A stretch of DNA of 64,000 bases from Stegostoma tigrinum (Eukaryota): the NCBI RefSeq assembly GCF_030684315.1, contig NC_081391.1, positions 13,307,342 through 13,371,341 on the forward strand, given 5' to 3'. This document shows positions 2,927 to 46,877 of this stretch, one piece after another. Made by a program: the position numbers and the translations under genes. The stretch's first letter is position 1, and each line of letters starts with the position of its first letter. The notes beneath the pieces are model-generated. The model searched no databases. It was not told where the DNA came from and saw only the letters and a program-made list of their open reading frames with translations.

Positions 2927-3114
2927 AGGTCAAAGGTCAGTCAGCAATTCCATCATCGACCAGTTGTCAATTCTGATCGGTTTCTGGATCCAATTCCCAT
3001 CCTGCACTGATTGGACGTGGCAACTGATCAATTGAGTAACAAGAGTAATTGGCCATCACTGATGATGCCATTTCCTGCTTCACAAAGTGAGGGTCTGCTC
3101 CTGGAGCATAAATA
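2927..3114 (+). promoter_or_regulatory. Core promoter of ferritin copy 1: DR1 site, inverted CCAAT boxes, TATA variant
   Basis: AGGTCAAAGGTCA at 2927-2939; CTGATTGG ~3007-3014 and AATTGGCC ~3047; CATAAATA at 3107-3114, about 100 nt before the ATG; same layout in the paralogs. Confidence 0.7.
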
Positions 3115-4029
3115 ACGTCCTAAGAGAATGCTGTTTTAGGTGTAGTTGGTTTTCTTTTTCTAGTTATAATTTGATTGTGAAGGAAAAGGAAAGTTGTTTC
3201 TATCACAAGATGGCCTCCCAGATCAGTCAGAACTATCACCAGGATTGTGAAGCTGCTGTCAACAAGCAGATTAATGTGGAGCTCACTGCCTCCTATCTCT
3301 ATCAGTCTTTGGTGAGTGTCCCTGTAGTGTTGGATTTAAATCTGTTATGAAGTGAACTTTTTCTTAAAAAACTAGATTAACACTCTTGTAGACTTTTCTT
3401 TGTATCTCTTGCCTATTTCTTGAGTCAGGGTAAATGTGATGACAATGGGATATGATACTGATATGCAGCAACTGAGGCCCCAGTTGTCTCAATGATATAG
3501 GGAGGGTGAAGCATCTTGTGATTTATCTTAAAATTCCTTTTAGGGCTGTGATTGCCTATAACTGACCGTGGTTCTCCATAATTTTCTAAACTACTGTCAA
3601 GTTTTGATGATCAAGATAACATTTGGCTAATTACCTTTTTTAAATCTGCCTTGATGTATCTATTTTAATTTTCAGCATGTAAATAAACAAACAAACATAC
3701 TGATTTTGGTATTTACAATGAAGTGTTGTAGTAATTTGACCAATCAGATTTGGTTAAGCTGAACTCTAGTCCTCCAGGTAAAACAGGCTGCTACCTACTT
3801 AAGTAGGTCTCCTATATTTTGGCTTCTTGTACTCTATCATGAGGTGGGTTTGATCCATCACTTCACAACCTATAGATAGTTGACTTGTGGGTGCCCTGCA
3901 CCCACCCCCGCCCCACCAGGGCTGCTGGAACATGCTGAGGCTATTGACCCAGAGGTGAAGAAATAAATGTTCTTCCTTTACCATTTAACCAGATAAAGAA
4001 ACAAACTGGCTCCTCCCACCATGTGGTGG

Positions 4030-4260
4030 TGCCCCTGTGCCCTTCCAAGGGGTAGAATGTGTTCAGAAGGTGTTGCAGTCCCCTTGGTGAGTGCTGCAGG
4101 GGACCTGGTAGATAATGGACCCTGAAAGGAGGTGGTGAATGCAGTCCCCATGAAGTGGGCTGCTCTGTCCTGGATGGTGTCTGCTTCTTGCATGTGGCAG
4201 CTCCACTTCTTCAGACACATGGAGAATATTCATCACTCTCTGGGCTTGTGCTTGTTGGAG
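4030..4260 (-). mobile_element. LINE (L2/CR1-group) remnant in intron 1
   Basis: Minus ORF contains [13 protein letters not shown], resembling the post-RT (L)DTIQDKAARLIG segment of L2-type ORF2; homologous blocks in intron 1 of copies 3, 4, 6, 7, 8. Confidence 0.45.
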
Positions 4261-5907
4261 CGAAGCTGCCTCTAAATGACATGAGGATCAAGCCCCTATA
4301 ACCTACCTTTTTGGGAGGTGGAACAGCTTTAACTAGTGAACCAATTGTTGGGTTTTAGTCACTGACCACTGTCCCAACTCAATAGGGAATCTTGTGTGCT
4401 GATAATAAAATCCCCACTATTCTACACCTTCTATGACTTAACTACCCCATTAAACCACTTTTTTTTAACTTTTTTTGTTTTTATTTGAGGATTAAACTAA
4501 CTTTTCACCAGGATTCCACCCAAGAACGAAATCTTCTTTTGAAGAAGTCAATAGACTACTCCTAATCAACAATAACTTGTTGGATTGTGAATCTCAGTTG
4601 AAAAGTGAGTGAAATGAGTGGGGAAACAATAGTTTAGATCTTGGAATAAGCTAAATTGAGCTCTCCAGCTTTGCAATCTATAGATCATGTGACTTGTTCA
4701 TAGTCCTGCAGATACTATTAGGTCTCCTGAACATTCGATCTTGTTTCAGTTGTGAATTTTTTTAATGCTTTGCTTTGCAAGCTTCTGGCAACCTGAGTGC
4801 ACTGCATAAACAAATGTGATAAACTATTGCTGCAACAAGCCAAAGGCTATCACTGGGCAGGCTCTCCTTTAGCACCAAGATTCTCCAAATTGCCCTCATT
4901 CTCCTGCATACTGCAAACAGCATCTCTTGTAGAGCTGCTTTATGTAAAGAAAAAATACAGTACATCTGATCCAACTGGTTGCAGAAGACCTGTACCTACT
5001 CGCTACATTCATGTCCAGCATCTGCATGCTACTCTAGCACCAGGGGAGACATGTAATGACTTGAAGTTGCCTGACCCTGTGCACATCCTGCATTCCAGCT
5101 CCTGGCACTTGGTTAAACCCTATTCAGTTACCACTTCCATCCAATTCTGGAGGCTAGATGGCAGAAATGTGCATTCAGCTTTTCTATCTAGGCTGTGCCA
5201 GACCCACACCCCCAAACAATTCAGCAGGGTTTATAAACCCAAACACTGAAATTGTATCTTACATGGAAGAAGCTGGGGTTGTTTGGTTTCCTCCAATTAA
5301 AGGAGCTGCTGGCTAACTTTGCAACACCATTAGTGAACATTGTAAGGTGTCAACAATTTTCAGCTGATTGAATCATTAGTTTGCTTTAGACTAAACCAGT
5401 CCTCCAGTTCTGAGCATGAGAAATGGGGTCAATGATGTGTTTAATGGGCTTTAACTTTTGTTCTCCCTTCCAGATGTCCTACTTTGACCGGGATGATGTT
5501 GCCCTCGCCCATGTCTCCCGGTTCTTCAAAGATCAGTCCCAAGAGAAGCAGGAACATGCAGAGAAGCTGCTGAAATTCCAGAATCAGCGTGGAGGCAGAG
5601 TCCTCCTCCAGGATGTGAAGGTTGGAGTTTTTGGTGGGGGGTTGTGTGGCAGTGTGCAGGAATGGCAGCTCATGGTGTTTTCTGTCATTAGTGACAGGAT
5701 TTTCACGTGGTAAAGGGTGTGTAGGTTAGAGTTGGAGAACTTAGGCAGTGGGGAGGAGATGTGAGAAATGGCTGCTTGTGGTGAGGTTTCATGTCCTGAA
5801 AGAAAGTGAAAACTGTTCTTGTTTGGCTCCCCTCCTTTTGACTAAAAGGGAAGATCCTCGAAACAAGCCTCTTGGCTCCCCTCCACCTGCTGCTTCTCCA
5901 CACCGCG

Positions 5908-5929
5908 CCCCCCCCCCCCCCCCCCCCCC
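5908..5929. repeat. Poly(C) homopolymer in intron 2
   Basis: Run of ~22 C; similar C-rich tracts at ~18040, ~27280, ~44108, ~60886, ~62880. Confidence 0.9.
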
Positions 5930-6846
5930 ATGCTGACCCAACAAACACCAAACCACATTCATCCCATTTACTGCACTTGGTCTCCAGCCCCCATGGCATT
6001 GGTAGTTGTCTAGAAGCTGCTTCAATATTGCAGCAGTAGATGCCTCCCCCACTGCCCCACCCCCCCATATTATTTTTCCACTACCCTCTCGGCAAAGGAT
6101 TCCTCTAACCTGCTTACTCCTCACATCAGTGCCCTCTGGTCTTAATGTCTCTTTCTCCCCACCCCCTCATAGCAGACACTCCCCATCTACTATCAAGACT
6201 CCACACTAATCAAATGCCATCACAGAAACATCTCAACTGACTTCACTCTGGGGATTGGAGTGAGAAATCTAATCTCTCCTTTTAATGGATTTTTCAGTCT
6301 TGGGGCAACATCCTAGTGACCCCTTCCAGTGCCATTGTGGCTCTGGTCACCACACTGTATTCCACGTTTGCATGGCCAATGCTGCAAAGTTTGTGACAAG
6401 ACTGGAGTCCCTGGACTGCACCCCAGGAAATGGGGACAGGCATTGTGGAAGCCAACTTCCCCATCCTGTCTACACTTATGGATCCTTGAAATATCTTTAG
6501 TCTTGTGCTCTTGGTTCCTTTATTGTCAACATATTGCTGTCCCTTCAATGAATTAAATAGTAGTGCTGATTTTCATCATTCAGGTCAGTCCTATATGAAG
6601 CAATAGGCCCAGGTTGAAGTCCCACTTGTGCTTATGCTCCAAGCCTAGGGACAGTACCACTGCATAACAAGCCCCGGGCTCAAGTTGTGAATATCCTCCT
6701 TGGGATGCCATCAGATGGGCACTGACAATTCTGTGCAAGCATAACTCTTATCCCCACTATGACCTGGTCATGAATTGACTCTCCTTTCGGAAGAAGCAAA
6801 TAGGGCTAGGTGAAAGGAATTCTTAAATAACTGATCTGGGCTTCAG

Positions 6847-7092
6847 GGATGGCAGTGGTTAGCACAACTGCATCAGTGCTTGGGGCACAAGCTTAATTCT
6901 GGCCTCTGGTGACTGACTGGAATTTACATGTTCACCACATCTCTACATAGGTTTCCTCCCACAGTCCAATGATGTGCAGGTTAGGATAGGCCATGAAAAA
7001 TGCAGGATTACATGGCTAGGTCTAGGACCAGGTTGGATGCTCTTCAGATGGTCATGAGTGGGCAGAATGGCCTGATGCATGCTGCAGGGATT
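6847..7092 (+). mobile_element. Degenerate HE1/V-SINE-like element at the 3' end of intron 2
   Basis: CAGTGGTTAGCAC head, GGTTTCCTCCCACAGTCCAA.GATGTGCAGGTTAGG core and GAATGGCCT...GGGATT LINE-type tail. Present at the same position in every copy (~15375, 23958, 33696, 41917, 50003, 56808, 63834), so it predates the duplications. Confidence 0.65.
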
Positions 7093-10000
7093 TTTGTTTC
7101 TGAGGCTTAACTGTCCTTCTGTCCATCCTCAGAAGCCAGAGAGGGATGAGTGGGTAACAGTCTGCAGACAATGCAGGTTGCCCTGGATCTGGAGAAGAAT
7201 GTGAACCAGAGTTTGCTGGATCTACACCAACTCTCCACAGCCCAGACTGACCCTCATGTAAGCTTCACCACTTCATTCTCATCACTGCGAGACCCTCAGG
7301 GTAACACTTCATTGGTTGGTCTGTGTGGATTGGAAATTCACAGGTGTGCACTGATCACTTCGGGTCCATGCTGCTGAGCAGTTGTTACATGGTGATCAGT
7401 AATGAAGTGAAATGGGAGTTTGGAAGGCAATCCATTGGGAGTGATGAAGTGATATTGGCCATTGAATTCCCATTCTCACTTGGGAGCATTACAGTGGAAT
7501 GATCATTGTCCATCACCATCCAACTCAGCTCCACTTCACAAACAGCAAGATGGAGCAGCTGAAATCCTATTGTCATCACCGACACAGATTTTCCAGGTGT
7601 TAGCTAAATTTTCAGGGCTGTCTGGAACTAGTATGGTAAAGCCTGTTTTTCAGTGGGAATTCTGAAATTGTCTTGGATAGTGTTAATGCACCCAGTTGTC
7701 ATATTCCTCTGTTGCAGCTGTGTGACTTCCTGGAGACTCACTATTTGGATGAGGAGGTGGAGATCATCAAGCAACTCGGGGACTACATCACCAACCTGAA
7801 GCGCCTGGGAGCCCCTGAGAATGGGATGGGAGAGTACCTGTTTGACAGGCTCTCCCTGGAGGACAGCAGTTAGTGTGGCCTGGAGTACTGTCTGCTTGGT
7901 CTGAATGCATTCCCCACTTCACCCTGGACAACCTGTCTCCTTCCAAGGAGAAGGGACTTGTGTAGCAAAGAATGTAATAGCTGTACCAGCTAAATGGAAA
8001 TGAATAAAATTATGTATTGATCTTGCTTATTGTCCATCATTCAGAGCTCTGAATACTTTGGGTGATAGCTCTTGCTTGAAGCCAGTTCTCTTCTGTAATT
8101 TGATTGGTCCAATTTCTAATTGGACTGGGCAACCCTTCACGGAATCGCTCACTATCCCCACATTAGAATGTAACTAGATGGAGTGTTTTTTTGGTTATTC
8201 CTGTGGAAATTGAAGGTGCTTCTCCTCCAAATAGGATAAGGTTGGGATTTGTCAATTGTGGCATTGGCTTTCTTCTAGAGGACAATTAGTGCGCTTCTGG
8301 ATATGGTGGGTTCAACTGTAGCTCAAAGCAATTGTCTTCCTCTGGTGCCAGGAAGCTCCCACACCGTCCAAAGAGACTTCTCTACCCAGCCTGATAGAAT
8401 TTGGGATAGTGGTGTTCAATTGCACATTTCCCTTGAAATCTCTTCCCCGCCTCAGCCATCCTGCGTACTCAATTATTGCCTGAATGATGACAGCAACAAA
8501 AAGTGAAGACAGCCCTTTATCAACTGACCCAGCTGCCTGATCACAAAGGTCTAAAGGAAGAGGCCCAGCAGGCTCTGATTTCAATCCAGCTGGCGGAAGC
8601 AGCAGAGCTGTGAAACAATCTCGATGGCCTGGTATATCTCTTTTTTTTTTCCCCATTGGGCCCTACCCTGACCAAAACACACTATATTCTCAGTATTGTT
8701 ACTTTTTGGTTTCACCATCCCAAACTGTGGCTGGAGCTCCTTCTCTTCCGCCTCTTCCCCGCTTCTCTTTCCCCCCGCCCGCAACCCAACCTCTTCTTTC
8801 TTTTCTTTCCACGTGCCCCCAGCAGCCTTAACCTTCACCACAGCCCCTTCCCCTGGGAGTCAGCTCAAGACATTCACCTGAACTGGACTGGATTATCATG
8901 TAGAGCCTCATTGCCGCTTACAGCAGGATAACAGGGACCTGGGAATAACACAGCAATGCACCTGGTTAAATGCTGCTGTTTGATTGGCTCTTGTTGCTAA
9001 AGCCAGCATTGAGCGCACTAAGCTGCTCCCTTGGTGAACATTATTCCTGATGCAGGTTGATTGGGTGAAATCACATTGAAGGAGCAAAGTGGCTCGGAGA
9101 GGAGACATGGAGATGCTGACTTTCCTTTACGGCTGCTTCTTTTATCTTTCAAGGTGTCAGAGATCATGGGTTCGTGAGGGGGCTATCAGAGACATCCTGA
9201 GGATTGTTCCAGGGAGTTTTGTAGCGAGTGCACACTGCAGCCTTCATAGAGGTTGGCGGGGGGGGAGGGGTTGCTGCAGAGTCAAAAGGCACTCAACATA
9301 TTTGTTCCACCACATAAAGCAATTTATTTTCGGTGAATAAGTCTGGGCTACAGTAACCCTCAAGTGCAGGAAGGGACCATTAGGCCCATTAAATCTGCAT
9401 CGACCTTCTGAACAGCATCCTCTTTAGACCCAACCCCTTTGCCTTAACTCCACATTTCCCACGGCGAATCGACCTAGTCTGCAGGCCCCTGCTCACGATC
9501 GACAATCTGCAAATCATTGGGCTGTGTGAGGAAACTCAAGCACCTGGAGGTAATCCACGCAGGCCATCACCCATGGGTAGAATCGAACCTGGGTCCCTGG
9601 CACTGAGCCGCCAAAGCATTCTAAAGTACCAAAGGAAAGGAATACACTGCGGCAAACTACATCATGGGAATAGACTCTGCAGCCCAGCCCGAACTTGCAG
9701 ACCAGGTTTTCATAAACTGTGTAGTGCCATTTGCCTACATTTGGCCCATCTTTCTCTAAACCGTTCCTTTCCATGTAAATCTCCAAATGTCACTTAAATG
9801 TTGTAATTCTATCCACCTCGACCACTTCCTCTAGCAGCTCGTTCCACACACGCACCACACTATGTGTGAAAATGTTGTCACTCACACCCCTTTTAAATCT
9901 TGCCCCTCTCCCCTCAAACCAATGCCCTCTAGTTTTGGACCCCCCCTACCCTGTCCCAGCATGCTTTTTATATACAGTCAATCTTGAGTGTGCCAATGGC

Positions 10001-10911: not shown

Positions 10912-11100
10912 AGGTCAAAGGTCATTTCAGCAATTTCATCATCAACCAGTTGTCAATTCTGATTGGTTTTTTGACCCGATTCCCATCCTGCACTGATTGG
11001 ATGTGGCAGCTGATCAAGTGATTAACAAGAGTGTTTGGCCATCACTGATGATCTCATTTCCTGCTTCATAAAATGAGTGTTGGCTCCTGGAGTATAAATA
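10912..11100 (+). promoter_or_regulatory. Core promoter of copy 2 (DR1, CCAAT, TATA)
   Basis: AGGTCAAAGGTCA 10912-10924; CTGATTGG; TATAAATA 11093-11100. Confidence 0.7.
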
Positions 11101-11186
11101 GAGTCCCACGGGAGGGATGTTTATTGTTGCTTTTAACTTTGTCATTTTTGTGGTGAGGAAAATAAAGCAAGCTTTTCCTTTATAAG

Positions 11187-14100
11187 ATGGCCTCCCAGAT
11201 CAGTCAGAACTATCACCAGGATTGTGAAGCTGCTGTCAACAAGCAGATCAATGTGGAGCTCACTGCCTCCTATCTCTATCAGTCTTTGGTGAGTGGTGTC
11301 TCTGTTGGGTGAAACATACTTCTGTTCTGTTGAAGTAACCTCTTCCCCTTGGATGTAATTAAGTTGTCTATCTTCTAGACTGAGTTTTGTGGCTCCTACC
11401 TCTTTCTCAATGCAGGATGAGTGTGATGTTACTGTAACAATAGTTTGGTGTCTAATGTTACTCTAACTTGGGTCCCAGTTGGTTGTCAGTGAGATGTGGA
11501 GGGTGGAGTGTTCTTGTAGTTACTTGCCTGTCCCATGATGGTGCTGTGACTGGTGGTAATTATCGCTTCCTGTGACTGTTTGTTTGAAACTTGAGGGAAC
11601 AAAATTAAAAATGAATTGGGACTCACCATTGTGGGAATGGAAGCACCATCAGCTAGTCACTGCTTTTCTTTTCCCTCTTGTATCCTTGTTTCTATTTGAA
11701 TCTTGTGGGGATCTGAAGTAAACCTGCCAATTGATACTGAGAATCTTGGTTTCCTATTGCAATCAGCTTAGAATAGGCTTGTTCTAGCCCTACAGAGCGG
11801 GGCCGAGAGGTGGCAAATGGAGTTTAATGCAGACAAGTGTGAGGTGATGCACTTTGGTAGGAGTAACCGGAAGGCTAAGTACAGCGCTAAGGGTAAGATT
11901 CTTGGTGGTGTAGATGAGCAGAGAGATCTGTTGATAGATAGACATGGATTGTTGAAAGTTGCCACCCAGGTTGACAGGGCAATTAAGGTAGTGTTTTGTT
12001 TTCTATTAATAGAAGACTGAGTTCTGGAACCAAGAGGTTATGGTGAAGCTGTACAAAACTCTGGTGCAGCTGCACTTGGAGTATTGCGTACAGTTCTGGT
12101 CACTGCATGAGAAGGATGTGAAGCTTTGGAAAGGGTGTAGAGGAGATCTGCTAGGATGTTGCCTGGTATGGAGGGAAGATCTTATGAGGAAAGGCTGAGG
12201 GACTTGAGGCTCTCTTCATTAGAGAGAAGAAGGTTGAGAGGTGACTTAATTGAAACATATAAAATAATCAGAGAGGGCTAGTTAGGGTGGATAGGGAGAG
12301 CCTTTTTCCTAGATGGTGATGGTGAGCATGAGGTGGGGTAGCTTTAAATTGAGGGCTGATAAATATAGGACAGATGTCAGAGGTAGTTTCTTTACTCAGT
12401 AAGGGAATGCAATGCTTTGCCTGTGACAGTAGTAGATTTGCCCACTTTAGGTACACTTAAGTCATCATTGGATAAGCAAATGGGCGTACATGGAACAGTG
12501 TAGGTTAGATGGGCTTGAGATCAGTATGACAAGTCGGCACAACATCAAGGGCTGAAGGGCCTGCACTTGGCTGTTATGTTCTATGCTCAGATTAAACTGG
12601 GTGAGGTTGTGACTCTTATCTGATTAAGCAGATCTCCATTTGAAATCTACCTTGCTTTTCTTCATACTCATGAGGTGGGTGTGGGCTGTCTGTATGTCAA
12701 GTGTTGGAGCTTTTCAAAGGCACAGCACTGCCATGGGGCTGAGAATGTACTGACCCAGTGACTCTGGTAAAAAGTTTATGCCCGTTGTATTTGGCCTGAT
12801 TCTAAACTAACTGGCCCCTCTTTCCCCAGGTGGGGTGCTTGTGCCCTTCCAAGGGGTAGAATGTGTTTAGAAGGTGTTTACGTAACCTTAGTGTTTGTTG
12901 CAGGGTGCTCTCTGGGCTTGTCCCTGTCAGCAGGAAGTCCCCTCCTGATGAGGGTCAAGCCCCTGTCAGCCCCACTTTGGGAGGGGGAACAGCTTTCATT
13001 GAGCCAGCAGTTGGGTTTTAATCACTGACCCATTGTCCCAACACCCCTTGTAAGCATGTGCCAGGAATGAAATCCTTACTATTCTACATCTTCTAACTGC
13101 ACATTTAAATCGCAAAGATAAATTGTGCTTGTGTGTGCATTTGAGAATTGAAGCAACTTTTTTCAGCAGGATTTGTAAGAATGTGCTTGTTACTGGCTGC
13201 TTCCAATAGCAGACCTGCTAAACCTCAATACATTGAATTGTGAACATCCTGGTTTAGAAATCTACAGGACTTTGCCTGTTGGATTAAGTCAACAGTGGTT
13301 TTTCCAGGTTAATGAGGGATCTTGTCTGGAGAGTAGTTGATCTGCAGATCACTGTCATATTTGTCATGTGATCAGTTTGTTTTGTCAGTCTTTCTTTCAT
13401 GTGTAATGGTACAAGTTGCTAGCAGTCTGAGTCAGTGCAGCTGTTTTAGATGCAGCAGTAAACTGTTGCAGTAACAATCCAAAGGCTGTCCTTAGGCAGG
13501 CTTTCCTTGGCAGATTCTTGGAGCTAACGTCCTTCATTCATCTCCTCATGCACCCGCAGGCACCCCTATACTGCAGTTCTTGTCAAACTAATAGATACAG
13601 TGCATCCAATTGCATTGATCCTGACTAAGCAGAAAATGTGCTTCTTCCTAGCTGTTAATTGCAGTGTCTAGGATCTGTTTTCTGGTCTTTGCCAAAGCAG
13701 CAATACAGTGCCCTGCAGCTGTTCTATTGGTGTACATCCTGCGCTCCAGCCCCTGGCACTGCTTGAAACCCTATTCAATCAAAGTTTTATCCCATTTCTG
13801 GTGGAGGTTAATCAGTAAAAACATCAATTCACACTTGTTCTCACCAAATGCTGTGCCAGACCCTCCTGGGCAATTTGCCAGGAGTTTCAAACCAAAATAA
13901 AACACATGGTATTTACAGCTTACCTGGAGGAAGCTGGGATTGTTTTGATTTTTCCAATTCAACAGCAACTGCTCCAAACTGGGTTCTGAATTGTTAATGC
14001 ATCAGGTACTTAACAGCTTATTGTCAGTTTGATTTTGAGAATGCTCAAGTAGCCCTGTAGTTCTGAACTGAAATTGGACCATGACGTGTTAATGGACTTT

Positions 14101-16383
14101 ACCGTGTTCTCCCTTCCAGATGTCCTACTTTGACCGGGATGATGTTGCCCTTCCCCATTTTTCCCAGTTCTTCAAACATCAGTCTCAGGAGAAGCGGGAA
14201 CATGCAGAGAAGCTGCTGAAATTCCAGAATCAGCGTGGAGGCAGAGTCTTCCTCCAGGATGTGAAGGTTGGAGTTGGGTGGGGTGGGGAATGGGATGGTA
14301 ATGGCTGCTCTTATGGTGTGGTTTCAAGTCAGTGACAAGGTTTTCATTTGAGTCAAAACTTTGTTCAGCCTGATTGATCTCCTTTTTGAAGCCAGTGTGG
14401 AAAGAAGCCCTTTGGCCCACCATGTCTATGCTGACCCCACAAACACTAAACAACATTAATCCCACTTAGCTGCCCTTGGTCCACAGGCCACTGTCCTGGC
14501 ACTAAGTACTTGTCCAGCTGGACCCTAAACTGATCTTGAGTCGCAGTTTCCACCACCATCCAACCCTTTATGTGGTTCATCTCATATATTTCAAACAGCC
14601 CCTCAGAGGGGTGGGGGGTGGGGTCAAGTTTCCTCCAATCCCCTCTAACCTGCTTACTCCTCAAACCTGGTTTCTCTCCGGTGTTGGTGTCTGCCATGGG
14701 GAAGACATTCCATCAACTCGCCACTCTCTATTCTTCAATAGTTACATCAGGTCGCTCCCTCAGCCTTTCCTGCTCCTCAAAACCCCAGCCTACCTAACAT
14801 CCAATCAATGGATCTTGGGCAACCTCACCAGCATCCCCCTGCAGTGCCATCCTGTCCAGGTGACTGGTGAGGCCAAAGAGGAATAATGTGGTGACCAGAA
14901 AAACAAACTGAGGAGACTGGTCCCCTTCCTGTTCCACCCCACCCAACTAATAGAGGTTGCTTGCCCTCTGTCACTGTTACACCCTGTTGACCTTGTCTGA
15001 ACTTTGAGGGATCTATGGTTTTGGGCCTTTCTTAACTGTTAGCAGCACAACACACTTTGCAAACACCTCGCTGTCCCTTTGATGAATTAAATAGCCGTGA
15101 TGTTTCTGATCATCCTGCTCGGGCATGTATGAAGCCACCAGCACAAGTGGTACTTGAACCTTGGCCTTGTCAGCCAGAGACAGGGGCACTACCACTGTAC
15201 CATGACAGCATTTAGGATTCACTTGTGAATATCCTCGCAATTCCATCAGATGGACCCTGATGCAAATCTTGTCATTATCCCCCACAATGACCTGTTATTC
15301 AACTTCCTCCTTCAGATCAAGGACCGACAGGCAAGGTGAAAGCAATTCTGAAGGAACTGTTCTTCAGCTGTGCTCCAGGGCTGCCTCAGGGGCTAGCAGT
15401 GTTCTCAGTGCTAGGGACACAGGTTTTGATCTGGCCTCTGGTGAGGGACTGGTGTTTACATGTCCTCCCCATGTCTGCGTTGGTGTCCTCATAGGATAAG
15501 GGGATTGGCCATCTGAAATGCAGGGTTACAGGAATAGGGTGGGAGAATGACGAGTTGGGATCCCTTTCAGAGCAGTTACAGACTGATCCACGTTGTAAAG
15601 ATTCTGAAGCTTAACTGTCCAACTTTCCTTCCTCCAGAAGCCAGAGAGGGATGAGTGGGGTAACAGCCTGCAGGCAATGCAGGTTGCCCTGGATCTGGAG
15701 AAGAATGTGAACCAGAGTTTGTTGGATCTACACCAAGTCGCCACAGCCCAGACTGACCCTCATGTAAGCTTCACCTCCTCATTGACTTCACTGCTAGGCC
15801 CTCAGGGCAACACGTTCATTGGTTGGTCTTTTGTGGATTAGAAATTCAGTTAGACTTTGTTTTTGTGCAGATGACATGGATCACTTCAGATCCATAGTGA
15901 TTACAAAATCATTGCTGAGCAGTTGAGTCCAAGTGTGTATTTTAACTTGTAAACCTGTGGGGAGGACTGAGGGGATATTGGTCACTGAATTCTCATTCAG
16001 GACCACTGCAGTGGAATGACTTTTATCCATCACAAGTTAACTCTGCTCCAGTAAATAAACAGCAAGATGAAACAGCTAAAAAGCAGTTGTCCTCTTTGCA
16101 CAATTTCTCCAGGCGTTGGCTCAAGACATCCCTGACCATCTCCCTCCATATGCATGTTTTTCAGTGGGAATTCTGAAGTTGTCTTGGATAGTGTTAATGT
16201 ACCAAGTGTCATATTCCTCTGTTGCAGCTGTGTGACTTCCTGGAGACCGACTATTTGGATGAGGAGGTGAGGATCATCAAGCAACTCGGGGACTACATCA
16301 CCAACCTGAAGCGCCTGGGAGCCCCTGAGAATGGGATGGGAGAGTACCTGTTTGACAGGCTCTCCCTGGAGGACAGCAGTTAG
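11187..16383 (+). CDS. Ferritin copy 2 (lineage B), intact 176 aa; exons 11187-11288, 14120-14266, 15638-15763, 16228-16383
   Basis: Four in-frame exons of 102/147/126/156 nt with GT-AG junctions at the canonical vertebrate ferritin intron positions; TAG at 16381-16383; AATAAA 16511-16516. Private changes ETDY and EEVR in exon 4. Confidence 0.92.
11790..12588 (+). mobile_element. 5'-truncated CR1 LINE in intron 1 of copy 2
   Basis: Reads [19 protein letters not shown]...; ends in the TGTTCTATG-type tail; broken frames. Confidence 0.85.
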
Positions 16384-20550: not shown

Positions 20551-20737
20551 AGGTCAAAGGTCATTCAGCAATTCCATCATCGGCCAGTTGTCAACTGTGA
20601 TTCGTTTCTGGATCCAGTTCCCATCCTGCACTGATTGGACGTGGCAGCTGATCAACTGATCATCAAGGTGATTGGCCATCACTGATGATGTCATTTCCTG
20701 CTTCATAAAAAGAGGGTCTGCCCCTGGGGTATAAATA
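20551..20737 (+). promoter_or_regulatory. Core promoter of copy 3 (DR1, two CCAAT, TATA)
   Basis: AGGTCAAAGGTCA 20551-20563; CTGATTGG and GTGATTGG; TATAAATA 20730-20737. Confidence 0.7.
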
Positions 20738-20822
20738 GAGTCCCACGGGAATGATGTTGATTGTTCTTCCTAATTTTGTTATTTTGGTGGTGAGGAGAAT
20801 AAAAGAAATTTATTGTCACAAG

Positions 20823-23800
20823 ATGGCCTCCCAGATCAGTCAGAACTATCACCAGGATTGTGAAGCTGCTGTCAACAAGCAGATTAATGTGGAGCTCACT
20901 GCCTCCTATCTCTATCAGTCTTTGGTGAGTGCTGTCTCTCGGGGTTAAACATATAAATCTGTTCTGTTGAAGTAAATTCTTTGCCTGGCCTCTAGTGAAG
21001 CTGACAATCTAGTAGATTGAGGTTTTGTGGCTCCTACCTAAATATCAGTTCAGGATAGAGGTGGTGTTACTATCACGATGGTGTAGGATACTGATGTATG
21101 TTAACTCAGGTCCCAGTTGGCCTTCAGTGGTATCTGGAGGGTAAAAGCCTCTTGCTTTTTTTTTCTTTCTGACACAAGTTTCCTGACTTCATTTGCCTGA
21201 TCTCTGTGGTGGTCCTAAACAAACATGCTGATTTTTTTTAACACTGACAATAACAATAACTTCCCTGTTGCAGTGGCCCTTGTTAGTCTGAACAAACCTG
21301 AGGCTAGTCTGTGACTGGTATCTATTTTATGTAGATCTCCTTCATTGAGGCTGACTTGGCTTTACTTGTATTTATTCAAGAGGTGGGTGTGGCCTATCCC
21401 GTTCCTACTGAGAGTAGATCTGCCGTGTGTGAGAAATGTTGGATCCCCTCTCTGCCCCCTCTCCTCCCCACCCCACCCCACACTGGGGCTGCAGGAATGT
21501 GCTGAGGCTATTAGCCCAGTGACATTGAAGAAATGGAGGTTGTTCCCATATCATTTAGCTTGACCTAAAACAAAATGTCCCCTCTATCCCGGTGGTGATG
21601 TGACTGTGCCCTTCCAAGGGGTAGAATGTGCTTGGAAGGTATGTGTTGAAGTAACCTTGGTGAGTGCTGCAGGGGACCTGGTAGGTAATGGACCCTGAAA
21701 GGAGGTGGTGAATGCAGTCCCCATGAAGTGGGCTGCCCTGTCCTGGATGGTGTCTGCTTCTTGCATGTTGTAGCTCCCCTTCTACAGACAGACGGGGAAT
21801 ATTCATCTCTCTTTGGGCTTGTGCCTCTTGGAAGGAAGTTGTCTTGTAAGGAGGACTAAGTCCCTATAAGCCTCACTTGGGAGGTGGGACCGCTTTAATG
21901 GTGAGCCAGTTGTTGGGGTTTAATCACTGTGTCCCAACTCTATTGGCACATGCTTCCCAAGGATAAAATCCCGACTATCTTCTGCCACAACTTGTAACTA
22001 CCCACTGAAACCACAGATATTTGCTTGCCTGACTGTGGTTTTTGGATTTGAGGATTAAAGTAACTTTACAGGAGTCCTTCCCCAGAATGTAATTCTTAGC
22101 TTATGCTTCCAATAGCGAGCATTAGCTCTTAAACCCTTGCATCGAATTGTGAACATGACAGTTTAGATATGAGTCACATGGGCTGAAAACCTACAGGATT
22201 TTTTGCCTGTTTGGGTAAAGTCAGGGCAAGTGTTTTTCCAGGTTACTGTTTTCACTAGTGACGTTATGTACAGGCCACTAATAGTTGACATTTGATCATT
22301 TGTTTTGCAATTTGTTTCAGTCATGTGACTTGGTGCAAGTTTCTGACAGCCTGAGTTTGCACTATTTAGGCAGAGCAATAACCCACTGCTGCAACGATCC
22401 AAAGGCTGTTACTGGGCAGGCTTTCCTCGGCATTATCTTAGTGCCAAACTCCATACTGGAGACAGCACACCTTTGTAGAGTTCATGTGTACACTTACATC
22501 CCAATCTCATTGATCCTGGGTTTGCAGAAAACATGCTCCCTACTAGTCGTTGACTACAGCAGGGTTTCAACATCTTTTTTCCAGTTTTCCCCAAAGGCAA
22601 AACATAGTGCCTTGCGTCTTGTAGTTGAGAACTGGAATGGGGAGTGAGCAAGTGATGTCTGATGTAATTTTAACTTGATCTTCCAGATGTCCTACTTTGA
22701 CCAGGACGATGTTGCCCTCGCCCATTTCTCCCGGTTCTTCAAACATCAGTCCCAGGAGAAGCGGGAACATGCAGAAAAGCTGCTGAAATTCCAGAATCAG
22801 CGTGGAGGCCGAGTCCTCCTCCAGGATGTGAAGGTTGGGGTTGGGTGGTGGGGGAAGTGCAGGGGGGAATGGCTGCTCTTGCGGTGTCATCTCCAGTGAC
22901 AAGATTTTCAGATCCTGAGCGAGTGTGAGAAGTTCTTTTGCTTGGCTTCCCTGTTTGCTCTCCTCCATCTCCAGTGTTTCAGCATTTATGCAAGCCCTCT
23001 GGTCCACCAGGCCTATGCTGACGCAGCAAAGACCGAACTGTACTCACCCTGTACTTGGTCCAGGCCCTACTATACCCTAGTGTTTAGCACTCGCCCAGCT
23101 AGTCCTTTAAACAGTGCTGCAGTAGCCGTTTCCAGCACTTTGTTCTTCCGTTCCCCAACACACCCACCAAATTTCCTCCAATCCCCTCTATCCTGCTTCC
23201 TCAAACCTGTGCCCTCTGGTCTGAGTGTCTGCCATGGGGAAGACATTTTCCCCATCTACTGTCCAGACTTCCTTGTCTTCCATCAAACAACCACCTCAGC
23301 CTCACCTGCTCAAAGGAAAACCCCCAGCCCATCCAATCTCTCTCCTCAATGGATTTTCTGTCTTGGCGAAACAACCTGGGGACCCTCACCAGCACCCCCT
23401 GCAGTAGCATCCTGTCCTTCTGACCAGTGAGGCCAACGATAGAATGCAGCAGAGACAGGAAGAACAATTTTCATAAAATGTGTTCAAAGGACTTGTCCCT
23501 GTGCTGTTCCTGACAACCCTGCCCCAAACTAACACATGTTACTTGGCCTATGTCCCCTTTCACACACAGTTTGCCTTGTGTGAGCATTGAGGGATCGATG
23601 ATCCTGTGTTTATTGTAAGCACATTACTGCCCCCCACAATGAATTCAAGTCATGATGGTTCTGACCATGCTGCTCGGGCATGTATGAGGCCACAAGCACA
23701 AGTGAGACTTGAACCTCAGCCTTGTCAACCGGAGCTTGGGACACTACCGCTACTTCCCCCACAGCCCTTGGGATTCACTCCTGAATATCCTTTTTAAGAC

Positions 23801-24985
23801 TCCAGCAGATGGACACTGGTGCAAATGACTAATCTGGTACATTTTTATTCCCTGTGGTACAAGGATACGTTCCTGAGCTTCCGGCTTCAGGTCAAGGATA
23901 AATGGGGCAAGGTGAAAGGAGTCACCAAGTAGCTAATGTTTTCTTTACCTGGACTTCAGGGATGGCACAGTGGCTCAGTGGTTGGCACTGTTGACTCAGT
24001 GCCAGGGGCACCAGTTTGGTTCTGGCCTGTGACGAGAATTTAAACGTTATCCCAAAGCATGGCTTCCCCACACAGTAGAAAAGAGGATTGGCAACTTGAA
24101 ATGCAGGTTACACGAACAGGGTGGGAATGGGACCAGATGGGATGCTCTTCAGCAGTTATGGTCTCAATGGGGTGAATGGCCAGCTCCCATGCTGCAGGGA
24201 TTCTGTTTCTAAAGCTTACCTGTCCTTCTCTCCATCCCCAGAAGCCAGAGAGGGATGAGTGGGGTAACAATCTGCAGGCAATGCAGGTTGCCCTGGATCT
24301 GGAGAAGAATGTGAACCAGAGTTTGCTGGATCTCCACCAACTCGCCACAGCACAGACTGACCCTCATGTAAGCTTCACCTCCTCATTCACATCACTGCTA
24401 GACTCTCAGGGTAATGTTTCATTGGTTGGTCTGTGTGGATTGGAAATTCACTAATGTAACACTTTCCATCCATTACTTTCCTGAACTATTGTAACATTGA
24501 TCACTTGGGATCATACTGATTACAATGAGGTATAAGGGGAATTTGATCTATAATCTAGTGGAAGTGCTGAAATGACGTTGGCCACTGAGTTCTTCGTTAG
24601 TATCATTGCAGTGGAATGATCATTGTCCATCACAATCCAACTCAGCTCCATTTCACAAACAGCAAGATGGAGCAGCTGACATGTTGTCCTCACTGGCATA
24701 AATTCTCCAGGTGTTAGCTCGCTTTTCAGGGCTGTCCAGAGCTAGTCATGGCTAAGTCTGTCTTGCAGAGGGAATTCTGAAATTGTCTTGGATAGTGTTA
24801 ATGTACCAAGTGTCATATTCCTCTTGCAGCTGTGTGACTTCCTGGAGACTCACTATTTGGATGAGGAGGTGGAGATCATCAAGCAACTCGGGGACTACAT
24901 CACCAACCTGAAGCGCCTGGGAGCCCCTGAGAATGGGATGGGAGAGTACCTGTTTGACAGGCTCTCCCTGGAGGACAGCAGTTAG
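20823..24985 (+). CDS. Ferritin copy 3 (lineage C), intact 176 aa; exons 20823-20924, 22687-22833, 24242-24367, 24830-24985
   Basis: Exon lengths 102/147/126/156, GT-AG junctions, no stops; private DQDD and WGNNL. Confidence 0.92.
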
Positions 24986-29142: not shown

Positions 29143-30206
29143 ATGAATAATATTCAAACTTGTCATTCAAAGCTAAAAGATAGCACTAGATTGCATCCTG
29201 CTTTTTGAAGCAGATATTGAGTGAAAGTAACTTGCTTCCACCAATCTGTACATCAGTGCTGTGATCATACTCGAACGTTCATTGGGGATCCTCAATTCCC
29301 AAAGCCTCACAGACCACCAGTCCATGGGAGGCTGCTCCATTCAACGCAGTTTCTGAGCCATACATTCTACAGAATGTAATGTAAACAGGACCAGCAACTC
29401 TCCACTTGGAAACATGCTGGACTTAAGCTCTCGATTTACTTCATTCAATTAAAAACCAAACTTTGCGAAAGAAAGTTTGCATGTGCTATACATTTCCAGC
29501 AGCAATGTAGACAGGGAGGTGTGAGGTCTACTATGCAGGAGAGGCACTCAGCACATTTAGCACCTTGCTTTTCAAACTGCACTTCATGAACCCAACGTCA
29601 AGGAGATCACAGCAGATTCAGAATGGATCCACAAAGGAATGAGCTTCCTGTATGAGGTAACCCAAAAGCACATTGTTTCTGTCGCGGCACAGCAATAAGA
29701 AAATGTTTACTGTTAACAAAATCTGGCCATTTTTCAATGGGCTCCAACGCTGTTATTCAACAAGTACAAAGACTAATCCCTCAGAGTAACAAACTGACAG
29801 AATTCTGCCAATCTGTGATGAGTGTGTCTTAAGATATAATTTCAGATACAATCTTGAAGTTTTAGAGTATATTTTATTGTCATTTTCACAGAGAAATATT
29901 TCCAGGATTTGCACTTGTGCAGGAGGTCAAAGGTCAGTCAGCAATTCTATCATCGACCCGTTGTCAATTCTGATCGTTTTCTGGATCCAATTCCCATCCT
30001 GCACTGATTGGACGTGGCAGCTGATCAATTGATGAACGAGAGTGATCGACCATCACTGATGATCTCATTTCCTGCTCAAGAAAATAAAGGGCTGCTGCTC
30101 GAGTAAAAAAAATGTCCCAAGAGAGTGATGTTTATGGTGTAGTTGGTTATCTTTCCAAGTTTGTTATTTGATTTTGGAGGAAAAGGAAAGCTATTTTCTT
30201 CATAAA

Positions 30207-33200
30207 ATGGCCTCCCAGATTCGTCAGAACTATCACCAGGATTGTGAAGCTGCTGTCAACAAGCAGATTAATGTGGAGCTCACTGCCTCCTATCTCTATC
30301 AGTCTTTGGTGAGTTTTGTCTTGATGGAGTTAAAATTAAATCTATTCTGCAAAAATGAGCTGATCCTCTTGTTTCAAATTAACTTCATAGTCTTGTAGAT
30401 TTGAGGTGTTTCAGTTTGCACCTTTAAAAATCATTTTGGGATAAATGTGATGCCCTTTGGTGACAATGGATTTTGATATTGATGTACAGTATCTAATTCA
30501 CCAGCTGGGATTGAGTGATAGATGGAGGGCAAATTGTTCTGTGAATTATTTTACAATTTACTGCCAGGCCTTTGCCTGGTGGTAACTGTCATTTTCCTCC
30601 CCAGAATTGACCAGACTTTACTAAAATTAGATGTAATGGTGTTGGGAGTTGTATGCACCCCTTGGCTAGTCATCCTGTAACATTTTAATATACCTTGATC
30701 ACACTTACTTTGTGCTCTGATCCTAAATACACATCATGCCAGTTTCCATTCTGTGATGGAGAATGATGGCAGTGACTGGCTTCTCTGAGCATATGCACGT
30801 GTAACTTGCATTGAGGAGGCCTCAGATGTGGACTAGTTGGCTTTCTGCATTCTCAGTTCATGAATGGACTGTTAGTGGTCAGGAAGTCACTTGTTGTCCA
30901 TTCCTCCAATACATCAATGCTCTCCTGTGAGTGCATGCACAGGGTGTCTGGAATAACCTGAGGTCTTCACTTCACCAAAAAAGGTGAAGAATTGGAGTTT
31001 CAAATTCCCACGGTATGGGAAATGGTGCCTTTCTCCAGGGAGCACTGTGCCTATGGCCTCTCAAAATGGCAGGCTATAATGGTTTGGAAATGTTGAAGCA
31101 GCTTTTGAAGGCTGCTAGGTACCTGGTAGATAGTGGACACTAGGAGTGCATTCACTCACTCCCTTCAATGAGGTGGGCTGCTCTGTCCTGCATAGTGTCT
31201 GCTTTGTGCATGTTGCAGCTCCACTTCTTGGGGGGAAAAAGGGAGAATATTCATCCCTCGTGGGGCTTATCACTGAGAAGCATTCTCTTCCCACGCTTTC
31301 AGGATGAAATCCCTGTACCCTTCCCTTTAGCAGGTGGGAACAGCTATCACCAATAAGCCTGTTGGGTCTTAACTGTCAGTGGTGTCCCATATCAATTGGG
31401 CAGCATGTGCCCAAACAACCCACTATTGTACATCTGTAAGATGCAGCTACCCAAGTAAAGTCAGAGAAAGTTGCATAACTGTTTTTAGACGAAAGAAACT
31501 TCTCAGCCTGATCAGTAGGAACTAGATAACCTGCTCTAACAAGGTGTAGAGCTGGATGAACACAGCAGGCCAAGCAGCATCGGGGGAGCAGGGAAGCTGA
31601 TGTTTTGGGCCTGGACCCTTGAGAAATGGGGAGGGGAAGAGGTCCCTGAAATAGCAAGGGGTGGGGAGGTGGATGGATGAGGGATCAAGAAACAGGTGGT
31701 GAGGAGACTCCGGTCTGAGGTAAGGATGGAGCCAATAAAGTCAAGTGAGTTGGGTAGGCCTGTCCAGGGAGGTGGGGATGGGGTTTGAGGTGGCGGGGGA
31801 GGTGGGGTGGGGTGGTGTGGGGAAGTAGGTGGGAGGAAGGATGGACAAGTTAGGGAGGTGGGGACTAGCTGAGCTGTGACTGGGGGAAGGGAGATCTTTC
31901 AGCTTAAGTCCTCACTGATACCATTGGGCTGCAGGGTTCCCAAGCAGAATACAAGGTGCTGTTCCTGCAACCTTTGGGTGGCATTGGAGGCCCAGAATGA
32001 ACATCAACTGTCCCCTCCTGCTCCTCTGGAGGGGAAGTAGTTTGTGACTGGGAGGTGCAGCTGCTGATCACGAGCCCAGCATAGGCACTCCACAAAGTGG
32101 TGTCAAGCCTCTGCTCGGCTTTCCTGATGTAGAGGAGGCCACGTTAGGAACAGTGGGTACAGTATATCTCACTGCAGATGTGTAGGTCCACTTCTTCTTG
32201 ATGTGGAAGGTCTTGGGGCCTGGGATGAGGGGAGGTGTAGCACAATCTGTGTGGCAGGAAAAAAGCCCTGGCTAGTGGAATGGACAAGGGAATCAGTGGT
32301 CTCTCCAGAAGGCAGCTAAGGTTGGGGAGGTAAAAAAATGTCTTTGTCAGATCGTAGATGGGATAAGTGCCAGAGGATGCTGCACTGGATCCTGTCATTG
32401 AGGTGGTACTGAAGGATGAGAGGATTCTGTTTTGGTTGTGTGCGGGATAAGATGCAAGACCGGTTGTGTTTTTCTTCCACTAAAGGGAAGTTACGCTCCC
32501 TCGGAAAACGAGGACATCTGGGATGCCCAGGAGTAGAATGCCTCCCCTCAGGGCTGGAGGTGAAGGAATTGGATTAGGGGATGGCGTTTTCCTTCCACAG
32601 GAAGGTGGGTAAGGTGTATTCTAGGTAGCTGTAGGAGTCAGTAGGTTTGAAATAGATCAAAGATTGATCGACAAACTTAAGGTTGAGGTAGAAGGCTCTA
32701 ATGAATTAGAGGAACCGTTCAAGCTCCTTGTGGGATGTAATGGAGGAAGATGTGGAGTTTATGGCCCATCTCCCTGTAGAAGGATTGTTCCACATATCCT
32801 AACAGAAGCAGGCACAGCCTGGGCCCATGCAGGTACCTATGGCCACCCCCTTCCTCTGTAGGAGGTGGGAGGAATTGAAGGAGAAGTTAGGGGTGAGGAT
32901 GAGTTGGCTAGTGGACAAGGTTGTTGGTGAATGAGGACCAGTCAGGCCTGCAGGATGAGAGAAGCAGAGGGCCTTCGGCTATCTCCATGGGGAATGGATG
33001 AGGTTGGAGGCTGTGGGTGGGAGGTCATCTCCAGTGAGGTTGTAGATGGACGAGGAGATGGTTTGGTGGTCAGGGGTGGAGTCATGATCAAGGGCGGGGT
33101 GGTAGGAGGTATCGGCTGCTCTTCCACACAACTACATGTGGAACTCCAGCTCCTGGCATTTCCTTAAACCCTGTTCAGTCACGAACTTCATCCAATTCTG

Positions 33201-34771
33201 ATGGTGCTTAGAGTGGAAATGTTCTTCTCTCTACAGACAAGAACAGGCCTGGGCACCTCAGGTTTTTGTCAAGGAATTTTAAAAAGTGTTTGCCTGGTTA
33301 CCAGGAGGAGGCGAGGGTTGTTCTTGATGATCCTTGAACTGGAGCCACTGGCTCATTGGACAATGGTTCTCATCCACCTTGATGTATTCAAAAAAGTCAT
33401 GTTTATTGACTTCTCAATTTGATTGAAGGCTAAACCAGTCATGTCTGGCACCAATTGTATGATGCTTAATGGGTATAACTTGTTTTCTCCCAGATGTCCT
33501 ACTTTGACCGGGACGATGTTGCCGTCCCCCATGTCTCCCAGTTCTTCAAAGATCAGTCCCAGGAGAAGCAGGAACATGCAGAGAAGCTGCTGAAATTCCA
33601 GAATCAGCATGGAGGCAGTCCTCCTCCAGGATGTGAAGGTTGGTGTTGGGTTTTTGGGGTGGGGGGAGTTGGGTGGTAGAGAGTGGCTGCTCCTCAGGGA
33701 TGGCACAGTGACTCAGTGTTTCCCATGCATGCCTCAGTGCCAGGGATCCAAGTTTGGTTCTTGGTTCTAGGCTCCAGTGAATGACTGACGTTTACTTGCT
33801 CTTGCCATGTCCACATTGGCTTCACGGTTCAATGATGTGTGGGTTAGAAGGATTGCCATTTAAAATGCAGGGTTACACGAATAAGAAGGGACTTGTAGCG
33901 ACGAATGTAGTGGCTGTGCCTGCCGATTGGGGATGAATAAAATGATGTCGTGACCTTGGTTATTGTCACCATGACTCAAATAGCCTGTTCCCATGCTGCA
34001 GAGATTGTGAAGCTTACCTGTCCTCTCTCCATCCGCAGAAGCCAGAGAGGGATGAGTGGGGTAACAGCCTGCAGGCAATGCAGGTCGCCCTGGATCTGGA
34101 GAAGAATGTGAACCAGAGTTGGCTGGATATGCACCTAGTCGCCACAGCCCAGACTGACCCTCATGTTAGCCTTCCCACCACCTCATTCTGATCACTGCTG
34201 GGCCCTCAGGGCAACACCTCATTGGTCTTTTGTAGATTAAAATTCACTCGGATACTTGGATCACAATGTAATATCTGAACAGTATGTTCATTTAATCAAC
34301 ATCAAAGCAGCTCAGCTATGAGCTGAAATGGGAATTTGGATTCACTACCAGGAGTGATGTTGGCCAATGAATTCACTCTCAGGGCCACTTGCATTAGAAT
34401 GATCATCGTCTGTCACAGTTCAGCTCAGCTCCATTTCACAAACAAGAAGGTGCATCTGGAACGTTACTGTCCTCACTGGCGCAACATCTCCTAGATGTCA
34501 GTGGCTTTTCCAGCTGTCGAGGGCCAGTTATGGTGGGGTCTGTTTCGCAGTGGGAATTCTGAAAATTTCCTGGATCATGCAAATGTACCAAGTTGCCATA
34601 ATTCCTCTGTTGCAGCTGTGTGACTTCCTGGAGACCCACTATTTGGATGAGGAGGAGGAGATCATCAAGCAACTTGGGGACTACATCACCAACCTGAAGT
34701 GCCTGGGAGCCCCTGAGAATGGGATGGGAGAGTACCTGTTTGACAGGCTCTCCCTGGAGGACAGCAGTTTG
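30207..34771 (+). pseudogene. Ferritin copy 4 (lineage D) pseudogene; exons 30207-30308, 33494-33638, 34039-34164, 34616-34771
   Basis: 2-nt deletion in exon 2 (GGCAGTC vs GGCAGAGTC; 145 nt); stop codon TAG changed to TTG (frame open to 34861); excess substitutions (QHGG, QSWLDMHL, EEEE, KCL); TATA decayed to TAAAAAAAA at ~30104; DR1 still intact at 29924-29936. Confidence 0.88.
31538..33115 (-). mobile_element. Degenerate Penelope-like retroelement (RT + GIY-YIG) in intron 1 of copy 4
   Basis: Minus-strand translation gives TSSIPHGD (~32980-33005; cf. YTSIPH), GVAIGTCMGP (~32821-32850; cf. GVAMG..MGP) and IYCTHCS*RGLLYIRKAEQRL (~32105-32168; cf. GIY-YIG VIY..C..C...YIGETKRRL); terminal pLTR-like segment at 31540-31625. 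Confidence 0.8.
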
Positions 34772-37653: not shown

Positions 37654-37841
37654 AGGTCAAAGGTTAAGCAGCAATTCTATCATCGACCAGTTGTCAATTC
37701 TGATCGGTTTCTGGATCCAATTCCCATCCTGCACTGATTGGATGTGGCAGCTGATCAAGTGATTAACAAGAGTGTTTGGCCATCACTGATGATCTCATTT
37801 CCTGCTTCAGAAAATGAGTGTTGGCTCCTGGAGTATAAATA
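37654..37841 (+). promoter_or_regulatory. Core promoter of copy 5 (DR1 with 1 mismatch, CCAAT, TATA)
   Basis: AGGTCAAAGGTTA 37654-37666; TATAAATA 37834-37841. Confidence 0.65.
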
Positions 37842-37927
37842 GAGTCCCACGGCAGGGATGTTCACTGTTGCTCTTAGCTTTGTTATTTTGGTGGTGAGGA
37901 AAATAAAGCAAGCTTTTCCTTTATAAG

Positions 37928-46792: not shown

Positions 46793-46877
46793 GAGTCCCA
46801 CGGGAATGATGTTGATTGTTCTTCCTAATTTTGTTATTTTGGTGGTGAGGAAAATAAAAGAAATTTATTGTCACAAG

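Follow-up and report, generated by a model that had tools for sequence, protein, structure and literature searches.

No iron-responsive element detected in a tandem ferritin array of the zebra shark whose promoters carry a 12-mer of the human ferritin H element

The 5' iron-responsive element (IRE) counts as a standard feature of cytosolic ferritin genes in vertebrates and has been used to separate genes from pseudogenes (PMC4117605), and breakage of the IRE of human FTL leads to unregulated overproduction (PMC11719527). The stretch of zebra shark DNA analysed here, 64 kb in length and called the window below, holds ferritin genes most of whose promoters contain a 12-mer that is identical to the 5' arm in the IRE of human ferritin H. 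This raises two questions: do the mRNAs of these genes carry an IRE, and is the 12-mer the remnant of one or a working site of promoter DNA?

The window is a head-to-tail ferritin array on the + strand. It contains eight copies (c1–c8) at a spacing of 6.2–9.6 kb, together with the last codons of a ninth copy at positions 1–21. All eight copies have a layout of four exons and three introns, and an intact frame of 176 codons is found in five of them. Relatives of the array proteins carry PF00210, and among those with a solved structure frog M ferritins come out best. The ferritin domain, the length of about 176 amino acids and the four exons with three introns of a vertebrate cytosolic ferritin are thus all present. 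The nearest proteins are RefSeq models of the zebra shark itself: the c7 protein is identical to P0218 (176/176) and that of c2 is nearly identical to P0186 (174/176). The copies are as follows, with c2 given exon by exon.

2927..7873, + strand: c1, from the DR1 repeat of the promoter to the stop codon; ATG at 3210, 12-mer at 3071; 1 nt deletion (frameshift) in exon 3
11187..11288, + strand: c2 exon 1 (coding), ATG at 11187; 87 contigs of sequencing run X6 join it to the beginning of exon 2
14120..14266, + strand: c2 exon 2; contains Lys59 (E62K in human H numbering)
15638..15763, + strand: c2 exon 3
16228..16383, + strand: c2 exon 4; contains Glu138 (Q141E in human H numbering); AATAAA at 16511
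20551..24985, + strand: c3; ATG at 20823, 12-mer at 20694, TATA box at 20730; 176-codon frame intact
29924..34771, + strand: c4, a probable pseudogene; ATG at 30207, variant 12-mer at 30068; 2 nt deletion in exon 2, TATA box degraded
37654..42924, + strand: c5; ATG at 37928, 12-mer at 37798, TATA box at 37834; intact
46605..51032, + strand: c6; ATG at 46878, 12-mer at 46749, TATA box at 46785; intact
53020..57788, + strand: c7; ATG at 53058; frame intact, promoter module gone, about 40 nt of leader in common with the other copies
59718..62602, + strand: c8; ATG at 59996, variant 12-mer at 59858, TATA box at 59893; promoter and exons 1–2, then the window edge

The block with c2 and c3 (10472–21142) is duplicated as that with c5 and c6 (37211–47197), with 84–96% identity over long stretches. 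The DNA upstream of c7 (51500–53020) matches the 3' flank of c3 (25453–26861), and the history of c7 reads as a deletion that fused the c6 flank to a leader of which the final 40 nt are left. The donor of exon 3 in c7 is GC. Among c2, c3, c5, c6 and c7, third-position differences are 0.035 in exon 1, 0.015 in exon 4, 0.09 in exon 2 and 0.067 in exon 3. Exons 1 and 4 are thus near-uniform whereas identity between leaders is only 65%, which makes it likely that gene conversion has acted on the array in patches. Intron 1 and the spacers also contain broken retroelement-like pieces (11790–12585, 19106–20358, 27735–28996, 38527–39308 and 45259–46400), recognized by eye from ORF fragments resembling reverse transcriptase. 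The RefSeq models P0004, P0005, P0021 and P0024 fuse exons of adjacent copies, P0024 reading as c5 plus c6, and the array is probably both mis-annotated and under-counted in RefSeq.

Seven of the copies keep a common promoter module, for which the features of c2 are given below. The names DR1, inverted CCAAT box and ETS-type site are putative assignments by likeness to consensus motifs. The 5' leader, and with it the term 5' UTR, derives from the position of the TATA box, as TATA + 30 to the ATG.

10912..10924, + strand: DR1, AGGTCA-A-AGGTCA, a perfect direct repeat and nuclear-receptor-type site
10980..11001, + strand: longest invariant promoter run, 22 nt, in 7/7 promoters, with an inverted CCAAT box (ATTGG at 10996) at its end
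11055..11064, - strand: invariant run CATTTCCTGC in 7/7 promoters, with a minus-strand GGAA core; ETS-type candidate
11057..11068, + strand: the 12-mer, which the human ferritin H IRE has as its 5' arm; here no loop or 3' arm comes after it
11093..11100, + strand: TATA box TATAAATA, identical in c3, c5, c6 and c8
11123..11186, + strand: inferred 5' leader, 64 nt, 30% GC, without IRE or upstream ATG

The DR1 lies about 180 nt 5' of the TATA box. It is perfect in five of the seven promoters (2927, 10912, 20551, 29924 and 59718) and has one mismatch in the remaining two, and no perfect DR1 was found outside the promoters on either strand of the 64 kb window. A second ATTGG follows about 38 nt 3' of the first in four promoters (c1, c3, c6 and c8). 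At the GGAA site the minus strand reads GCAGGAAATG in all seven, which fits a GGAA core with purine-rich flanks. The TATA box has a C at its first position in c1 and is degraded in c4. From its start to the ATG there are 93–103 nt in the seven copies, or 85–95 nt when counted from the end of the box, in line with the roughly 85–100 nt given in an earlier note on this DNA, which had been written from the letters of the sequence. That note had also described the 5' UTRs as AT-rich and divergent, and the inferred leaders (63–73 nt) indeed have 27–34% GC and a mean pairwise identity of 0.65. Over the 200 nt that precede the TATA box the corresponding identity is 0.875, and at the beginning of intron 1 it is 0.62. 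Invariant columns amount to 115/157 in the upstream promoter, 9/12 in the 12-mer, 10/24 between the 12-mer and the TATA box and 21/64 in the leader. A search for the promoter pattern in viral contigs gave no match.

No IRE was found in this DNA. The SIREs rules (PMC2896125) were coded as a scan, which with canonical loops gave no hit on the + strand of the 64 kb, spacers included, while as a control it detected a canonical IRE upstream of ten of 26 ferritin loci. When any loop was allowed, the region from −200 to +10 around the eight ATGs yielded six geometries with the loops TCACAA, TGATTG or CATAAA. None of these loops is canonical, none lies in a leader and all are upstream of the TATA box; the 16 SELEX loops were covered solely through this any-loop scan near the genes. 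The motif CAG[A/T]G is absent from all seven inferred leaders and from the sequence after the 12-mer, and no CAGWGH hexaloop occurs there. A GAGTGT 'loop' was considered and rejected, being confined to the sister copies c2 and c5 and having neither C8 nor a stem.

Covariance models gave the same picture. At the gathering score, Rfam gave no match of any kind in the full 64 kb, and at E ≤ 10 the region 10000–11400 gave nothing but one chance miRNA match (mir-5365), which was rejected because its 20 bits fall below the cut-off of 70. At its gathering score Rfam recovered only two of the 20 control loci submitted to it, so that its negative is weak when taken alone. Our own covariance model, built on eight control IREs, matched 20 of the 26 control loci (eight training rows, one identical to one of these and 11 held out). 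In the window it gave 19 matches, the best with 13.1 bits (E = 0.62), and all of them lie away from the 12-mers, TATA boxes and leaders. At the 12-mer, neither the rule scan nor either covariance model found the five-pair upper stem, C8 bulge and closed lower stem of an IRE. The controls are the 26 of 41 metagenome ferritin loci that combine a near-complete match with upstream sequence (15 were left out); the 41 loci show 43–67% identity and none is near enough to be itself a shark gene. Folding energies were of no help: the z-scores for the region of the 12-mer are −0.21 (c2), 0.75 (c3) and 0.05 (c1), a true control IRE also has −0.17, and MFE z-scores thus fail to discriminate IREs. Among the control loci themselves, six ferritin leaders (L001, L002, L008, L016, L020 and L021) have IRE-like matches of 21–28 bits with our own model. 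They were missed by the canonical rule scan and the five tested are also below the Rfam cut-off; possibly they have variant loops or stems.

The earlier note had reported no IRE hairpin between the TATA box and the ATG, and had proposed SIREs and Rfam searches as a check and an upstream exon with a canonical IRE as the finding that would speak against it. The searches bear the claim out and extend it to the whole + strand of the window. Since the spacers before all eight copies were scanned, no upstream exon within the window supplies a canonical IRE. Only an exon outside the window or a non-canonical element could do so, and we regard it as very likely that the main mRNA has no IRE.

Transcripts in which exon 1 is spliced onward are seen in sequencing contigs. 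Four of ten candidate runs were mapped as contigs onto 10300–11780, of which X6 is the only RNA-like one, with 87 contigs in which the last letters of exon 1 are followed directly by the first of exon 2; X8 is DNA-like. Overlapping, collinear X6 contigs cover 11100–11287 and with it both leader and exon 1, which is cover rather than a counted bridge, as none of those listed has 31 letters on either side of the AG before the ATG. Among the loose ends listed for X6 there is no splice joint upstream of the ATG, and the best supported ones just before the ATG (39 contigs) resemble the leader type of c1 and c8 and not a foreign exon. X6 also partly covers 11050–11099, upstream of the TATA box, and 10500–10599. 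This cover may reflect minor upstream starts or read-through; such starts would still form no IRE. There is no X6 cover at 11000–11049 or in intron 1, and the summed depth drops steeply 5' of the ATG. Neither the depth of contigs nor gaps in their cover can map a start site or rank expression, and this pattern is not counted as evidence. Extensions at the N-terminus of RefSeq models were considered as proof of an upstream exon and rejected, as they read through the leader.

The same runs contain other ferritins. The exon 1–2 junction of a ferroxidase-competent shark ferritin type is present in 37 contigs of X6. P0109, P0119, P0146 and P0163 represent a separate shark ferritin type with a full ferroxidase site, and an X1 contig with a P0109-like exon 1–2 junction extends 159 nt before the ATG. 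In X4, two ferritin contigs begin upstream of the ATG, one by 88 nt and the other by about 76 nt. The P0109-type gene is a candidate for an IRE-bearing housekeeping ferritin.

The 12-mer is exact in five of the eight copies (c1, c2, c3, c5 and c6, at 3071, 11057, 20694, 37798 and 46749). Its first nine letters are retained in c4 and c8, and it is absent from c7 along with the entire promoter. It is on the sense strand, 129–139 nt before the ATG, and begins 35–36 nt and ends 23–24 nt 5' of the TATA box, a spacing that is fixed in 7/7 promoters, all paralogues of this array. An A-rich run follows. The earlier note had placed it upstream of the TATA box in most copies, followed by A-rich sequence without loop or 3' arm, and both the alignment and the IRE scans agree. 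They show the 5' letters of an IRE including the bulge C, while the partner strand is absent. The identity with the FTH1 arm claimed there also proves exact: a human ferritin H IRE oligonucleotide contains the 12-mer letter for letter (PMC9965622), whereas the ferritin IRE probe of another study has a U where the window has a C (PMC5561112). Compared with the Rfam IRE_I consensus, 11 of the 12 letters are the same, and the sole mismatch, U to C in the window, creates the GGAA core. With up to one mismatch the 12-mer has seven matches in the window against 0.71 expected, but these are not independent, five being paralogous copies of one site and two (17963 and 41305) lying outside the promoters.

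The 12-mer is probably a working site of promoter DNA, putatively of the ETS type. This assignment is favoured because the invariant run opens 2 nt before the 12-mer and closes 4 nt short of its end, thereby omitting its last four letters, as a footprint centred on GGAA would sooner than the arm of an IRE. The segment in which an IRE would have its loop and 3' arm is poorly conserved (10/24). How far the match to the IRE arm could be fortuitous was estimated with random 32-mers drawn from the rest of the window, the target being 32 nt in length. Such 32-mers share an exact 12-mer with the 300 nt upstream of c2 (counted from its ATG) at a frequency of 4.4e-4 (102640 trials). For any of the seven promoters this becomes 2.1e-3, with a Markov estimate of 2.6e-3, while within the zone from −180 to −100 no case was found (0/102640). 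A match of 11/12, as seen with the consensus, has a chance of 1.9% in any register and 0.4% in 5'-arm registers. Allowing for a few IRE variants, chance would produce the match to H at near 0.1–1% and that to the consensus at about 2%. As chance is about 0.04–0.3% per target, descent from an IRE is retained as a minority view. We nevertheless judge coincidence the somewhat more probable origin; these odds are judgements and not computed values. Because the array lies outside the H clade (see below), the exact match is moreover to the IRE of a distant paralogue.

The reading towards which we lean, if with some reserve, is therefore that of an L-like, IRE-free ferritin array in which an ETS-type DNA site resembles the arm of the H IRE by coincidence. 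A rather less likely course of events is that the 12-mer is the 5' arm of an ancestral IRE, kept as a GGAA factor site when a new TATA box downstream moved the start. Transcription would have jumped past the IRE, the loop and 3' arm would have decayed and an IRP-independent array would have been amplified, turning an RNA element into a DNA element; the mRNA would be equally free of an IRE. An exact match would seldom arise by chance (4.4e-4 to 2.6e-3 per target, or 0.4% for 11/12 in 5'-arm registers), which speaks for such a descent, as do the sense orientation, the distance of 129–139 nt to the ATG, close to the −144 of the dolphin H-chain IRE (PMC2603009), and the fact that the only letter differing from the Rfam consensus is the one that creates GGAA. 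By eye, and without significance, the N-AAAATG that follows the 12-mer in most copies resembles ACAGTG in four of six letters with one insertion. It would however require two events, loss of the old promoter and gain of a new TATA box, compared with a single deletion in the leader, and there is no trace of a 3' arm and, by eye, no older TATA-like box 30–60 nt upstream of the 12-mer. The invariant block also reaches 5' of the arm (CCATCACTGATGAT, then CA), where an IRE has no counterpart. The loop-like GAGTG is confined to the sister copies c2 and c5, the match was spotted post hoc with several IRE variants available, and the genes of the array are not of the H type.

It is improbable that the 12-mer has no function and is a neutral remnant or passenger, alike between copies through recent duplication or gene conversion of the promoter. 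Its conservation (9/12) equals that of the surrounding promoter (115/157), so that conservation does not single it out, and the near-homogeneous third positions of exons 1 and 4 (0.035 and 0.015) point to conversion. Yet ten invariant letters in 7/7 promoters stand beside a stretch with 10/24 and a leader with 21/64, and leaders and intron starts have drifted to 0.62–0.65. The earlier note had left the choice between an ETS site and a decayed IRE. The former fits the conservation; the latter, as a functionless relic, is unlikely because unconstrained neighbouring sequence has diverged to 62–65% identity between copies. Lowest in our estimation stands retained iron regulation, by a distal non-coding first exon spliced at the AG before the ATG or by a non-canonical IRP-binding hairpin. 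An AG abuts the ATG in six of the eight copies, in some after a pyrimidine-rich run, and the RefSeq models P0005 and P0181 extend upstream of the ATG, that of P0005 mapping about 600–750 nt upstream to a region with slight X6 cover. Against this, no spacer contains a canonical IRE on the + strand and the covariance model finds none, the any-loop geometries are only six in eight copies and all upstream of the TATA box, c4 and c8 have AA before the ATG, and the X6 contigs run collinearly from leader to exon 1 with no joint listed.

The proteins set the array apart from H chains. Lys59 (E62K) is present in all eight copies and Glu138 (Q141E) in all five intact ones, while the other ferroxidase ligands, five in all, are kept (positions from PMC4117605). 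The earlier note was silent on this missing ligand, as it was on precedents of IRE-less ferritins. E62K is the L-chain state, and the array subunit would be expected to have reduced ferroxidase activity. In a tree of 59 rows selected from 231 proteins, the 12 rows with Lys59 group together (100/100); they come from sevengill, horn, cat, smooth-hound, mackerel and carpet sharks. This clade is the one to which the array belongs. It lies outside the H clade (96/89), and neither the grouping nor the complete ligand set of an H chain is found. It is also separate from the three amphibian L chains in this tree, which has no mammalian L rows, and joins the other shark ferritins at only 94/73, with deeper joins weak. 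From sequence, the L-like state of the array looks convergent with that of tetrapod L chains. Protein clusters of 43–76 members around array-type proteins indicate arrays in several sharks.

Some further observations were made on these proteins. The shark-wide E62K clade, with Q141E in addition in carpet sharks (P0003, P0100, P0214 and P0019), is annotated only as 'middle' or 'heavy subunit-like'. Sharks and rays also have a ferritin of 216–234 amino acids with an Arg/Gly/Leu-rich N-terminal extension (P0061, P0063, P0067, P0070, P0071, P0072, P0077 and P0079) that resembles, by eye, a mitochondrial targeting sequence. Several of these proteins are encoded on contigs equal in length to those with the array genes. 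Its four rows in the tree form a 100/100 clade, and it is possibly a mitochondrial ferritin with an origin separate from that of mammalian FTMT. P0129, a ferritin of 176 amino acids with 72% identity to the shark protein, comes from a record of 866 nt under the name Aeromonas veronii and is probably a mislabelled vertebrate sequence.

The account that we prefer, an L-like array with a fortuitous resemblance to the IRE arm, would then work as follows. The promoter would consist of the DR1, one or two inverted CCAAT boxes, the GGAA (ETS-type) site, where the 12-mer would act as DNA, and the TATA box. Transcription would start just 3' of the TATA box, producing an mRNA with a short AU-rich leader and no IRE. 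As no IRE was found in the array DNA, we infer that the array escapes IRP control: IRP1 and IRP2 would have no target and exert no repression, and output would be set by transcription and gene copy number. The DR1 would presumably suit expression in liver or gut. The L-like subunit probably enters mixed shells together with shark subunits that are ferroxidase-competent. In the simplest history, the IRE-bearing part of the leader would have been lost with the promoter left in place.

On the less likely reading by co-option, an array that supplies a convergent, ferroxidase-dead subunit by transcription and blind to iron would be a second vertebrate route to H/L-type shells. Shark-wide ferritins that are intact, spliced and amplified without an IRE would let the purpose of the IRE be tested by nature itself. 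They would also be a vertebrate instance of what has been reported for invertebrates, where loss of the IRE is paired with loss of ferroxidase. Should the 12-mer have been co-opted, it would be a clear example of an RNA element reused as promoter DNA; if not, the result is a useful but modest annotation of shark genes. In the literature searched, largely open-access and judged from listings, no paper on shark ferritin arrays or the IREs of their genes was found.

Ferritin mRNAs without an IRE and tandem expansion of ferritins are each known already. Mammalian FTMT and Fthl17 are not known to have an IRE. FTMT is in addition intronless and mitochondrial (PMC11719527). The family and the four-exon layout are common to the array and the vertebrate genes with a 5' IRE (RF00037, IRE_I; human FTH1; salmon H1/H2 and M1–M3), but all five salmon isoforms carry the element and none of the eight shark copies does (PMC4117605). 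In human FTH1 the 12-mer belongs to the 5' arm of the IRE, whereas in the shark it stands upstream of the TATA box with neither loop nor 3' arm, at −129 to −139 on the sense strand and so near the position of the dolphin element. Amphibian L chains share with the array Lys at E62 and Glu at Q141, although the two do not group in the tree, and mammalian L mRNA, unlike that of the array, keeps its IRE (PMC2896125).

Closer parallels come from other lineages. Ferritin isoform 2 of the chiton Acanthopleura granulata is likewise a soma-type mRNA without a 5' IRE; it uses another start site and is taken as constitutively translated (PMC7850002). There, however, one gene makes both isoforms and keeps the IRE, while in the shark whole genes of an array are without it and the ferroxidase site has changed. 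For invertebrates it has been stated that 'nearly all atypical ferritins lack' the IRE (PMC8395497), and sponge HdF2, from the same source, pairs E62K with IRE loss just as the shark array does. HdF2 is a minor, TATA-less and far more diverged single gene, in contrast to the shark genes, which keep the other five ligands, have a TATA box and are amplified. Tandem amplification is shared with fthl27 of the hadal snailfish, which has 14 copies in an expansion linked to oxidative-stress tolerance (PMC10746142), but which represents a different lineage and a young expansion.
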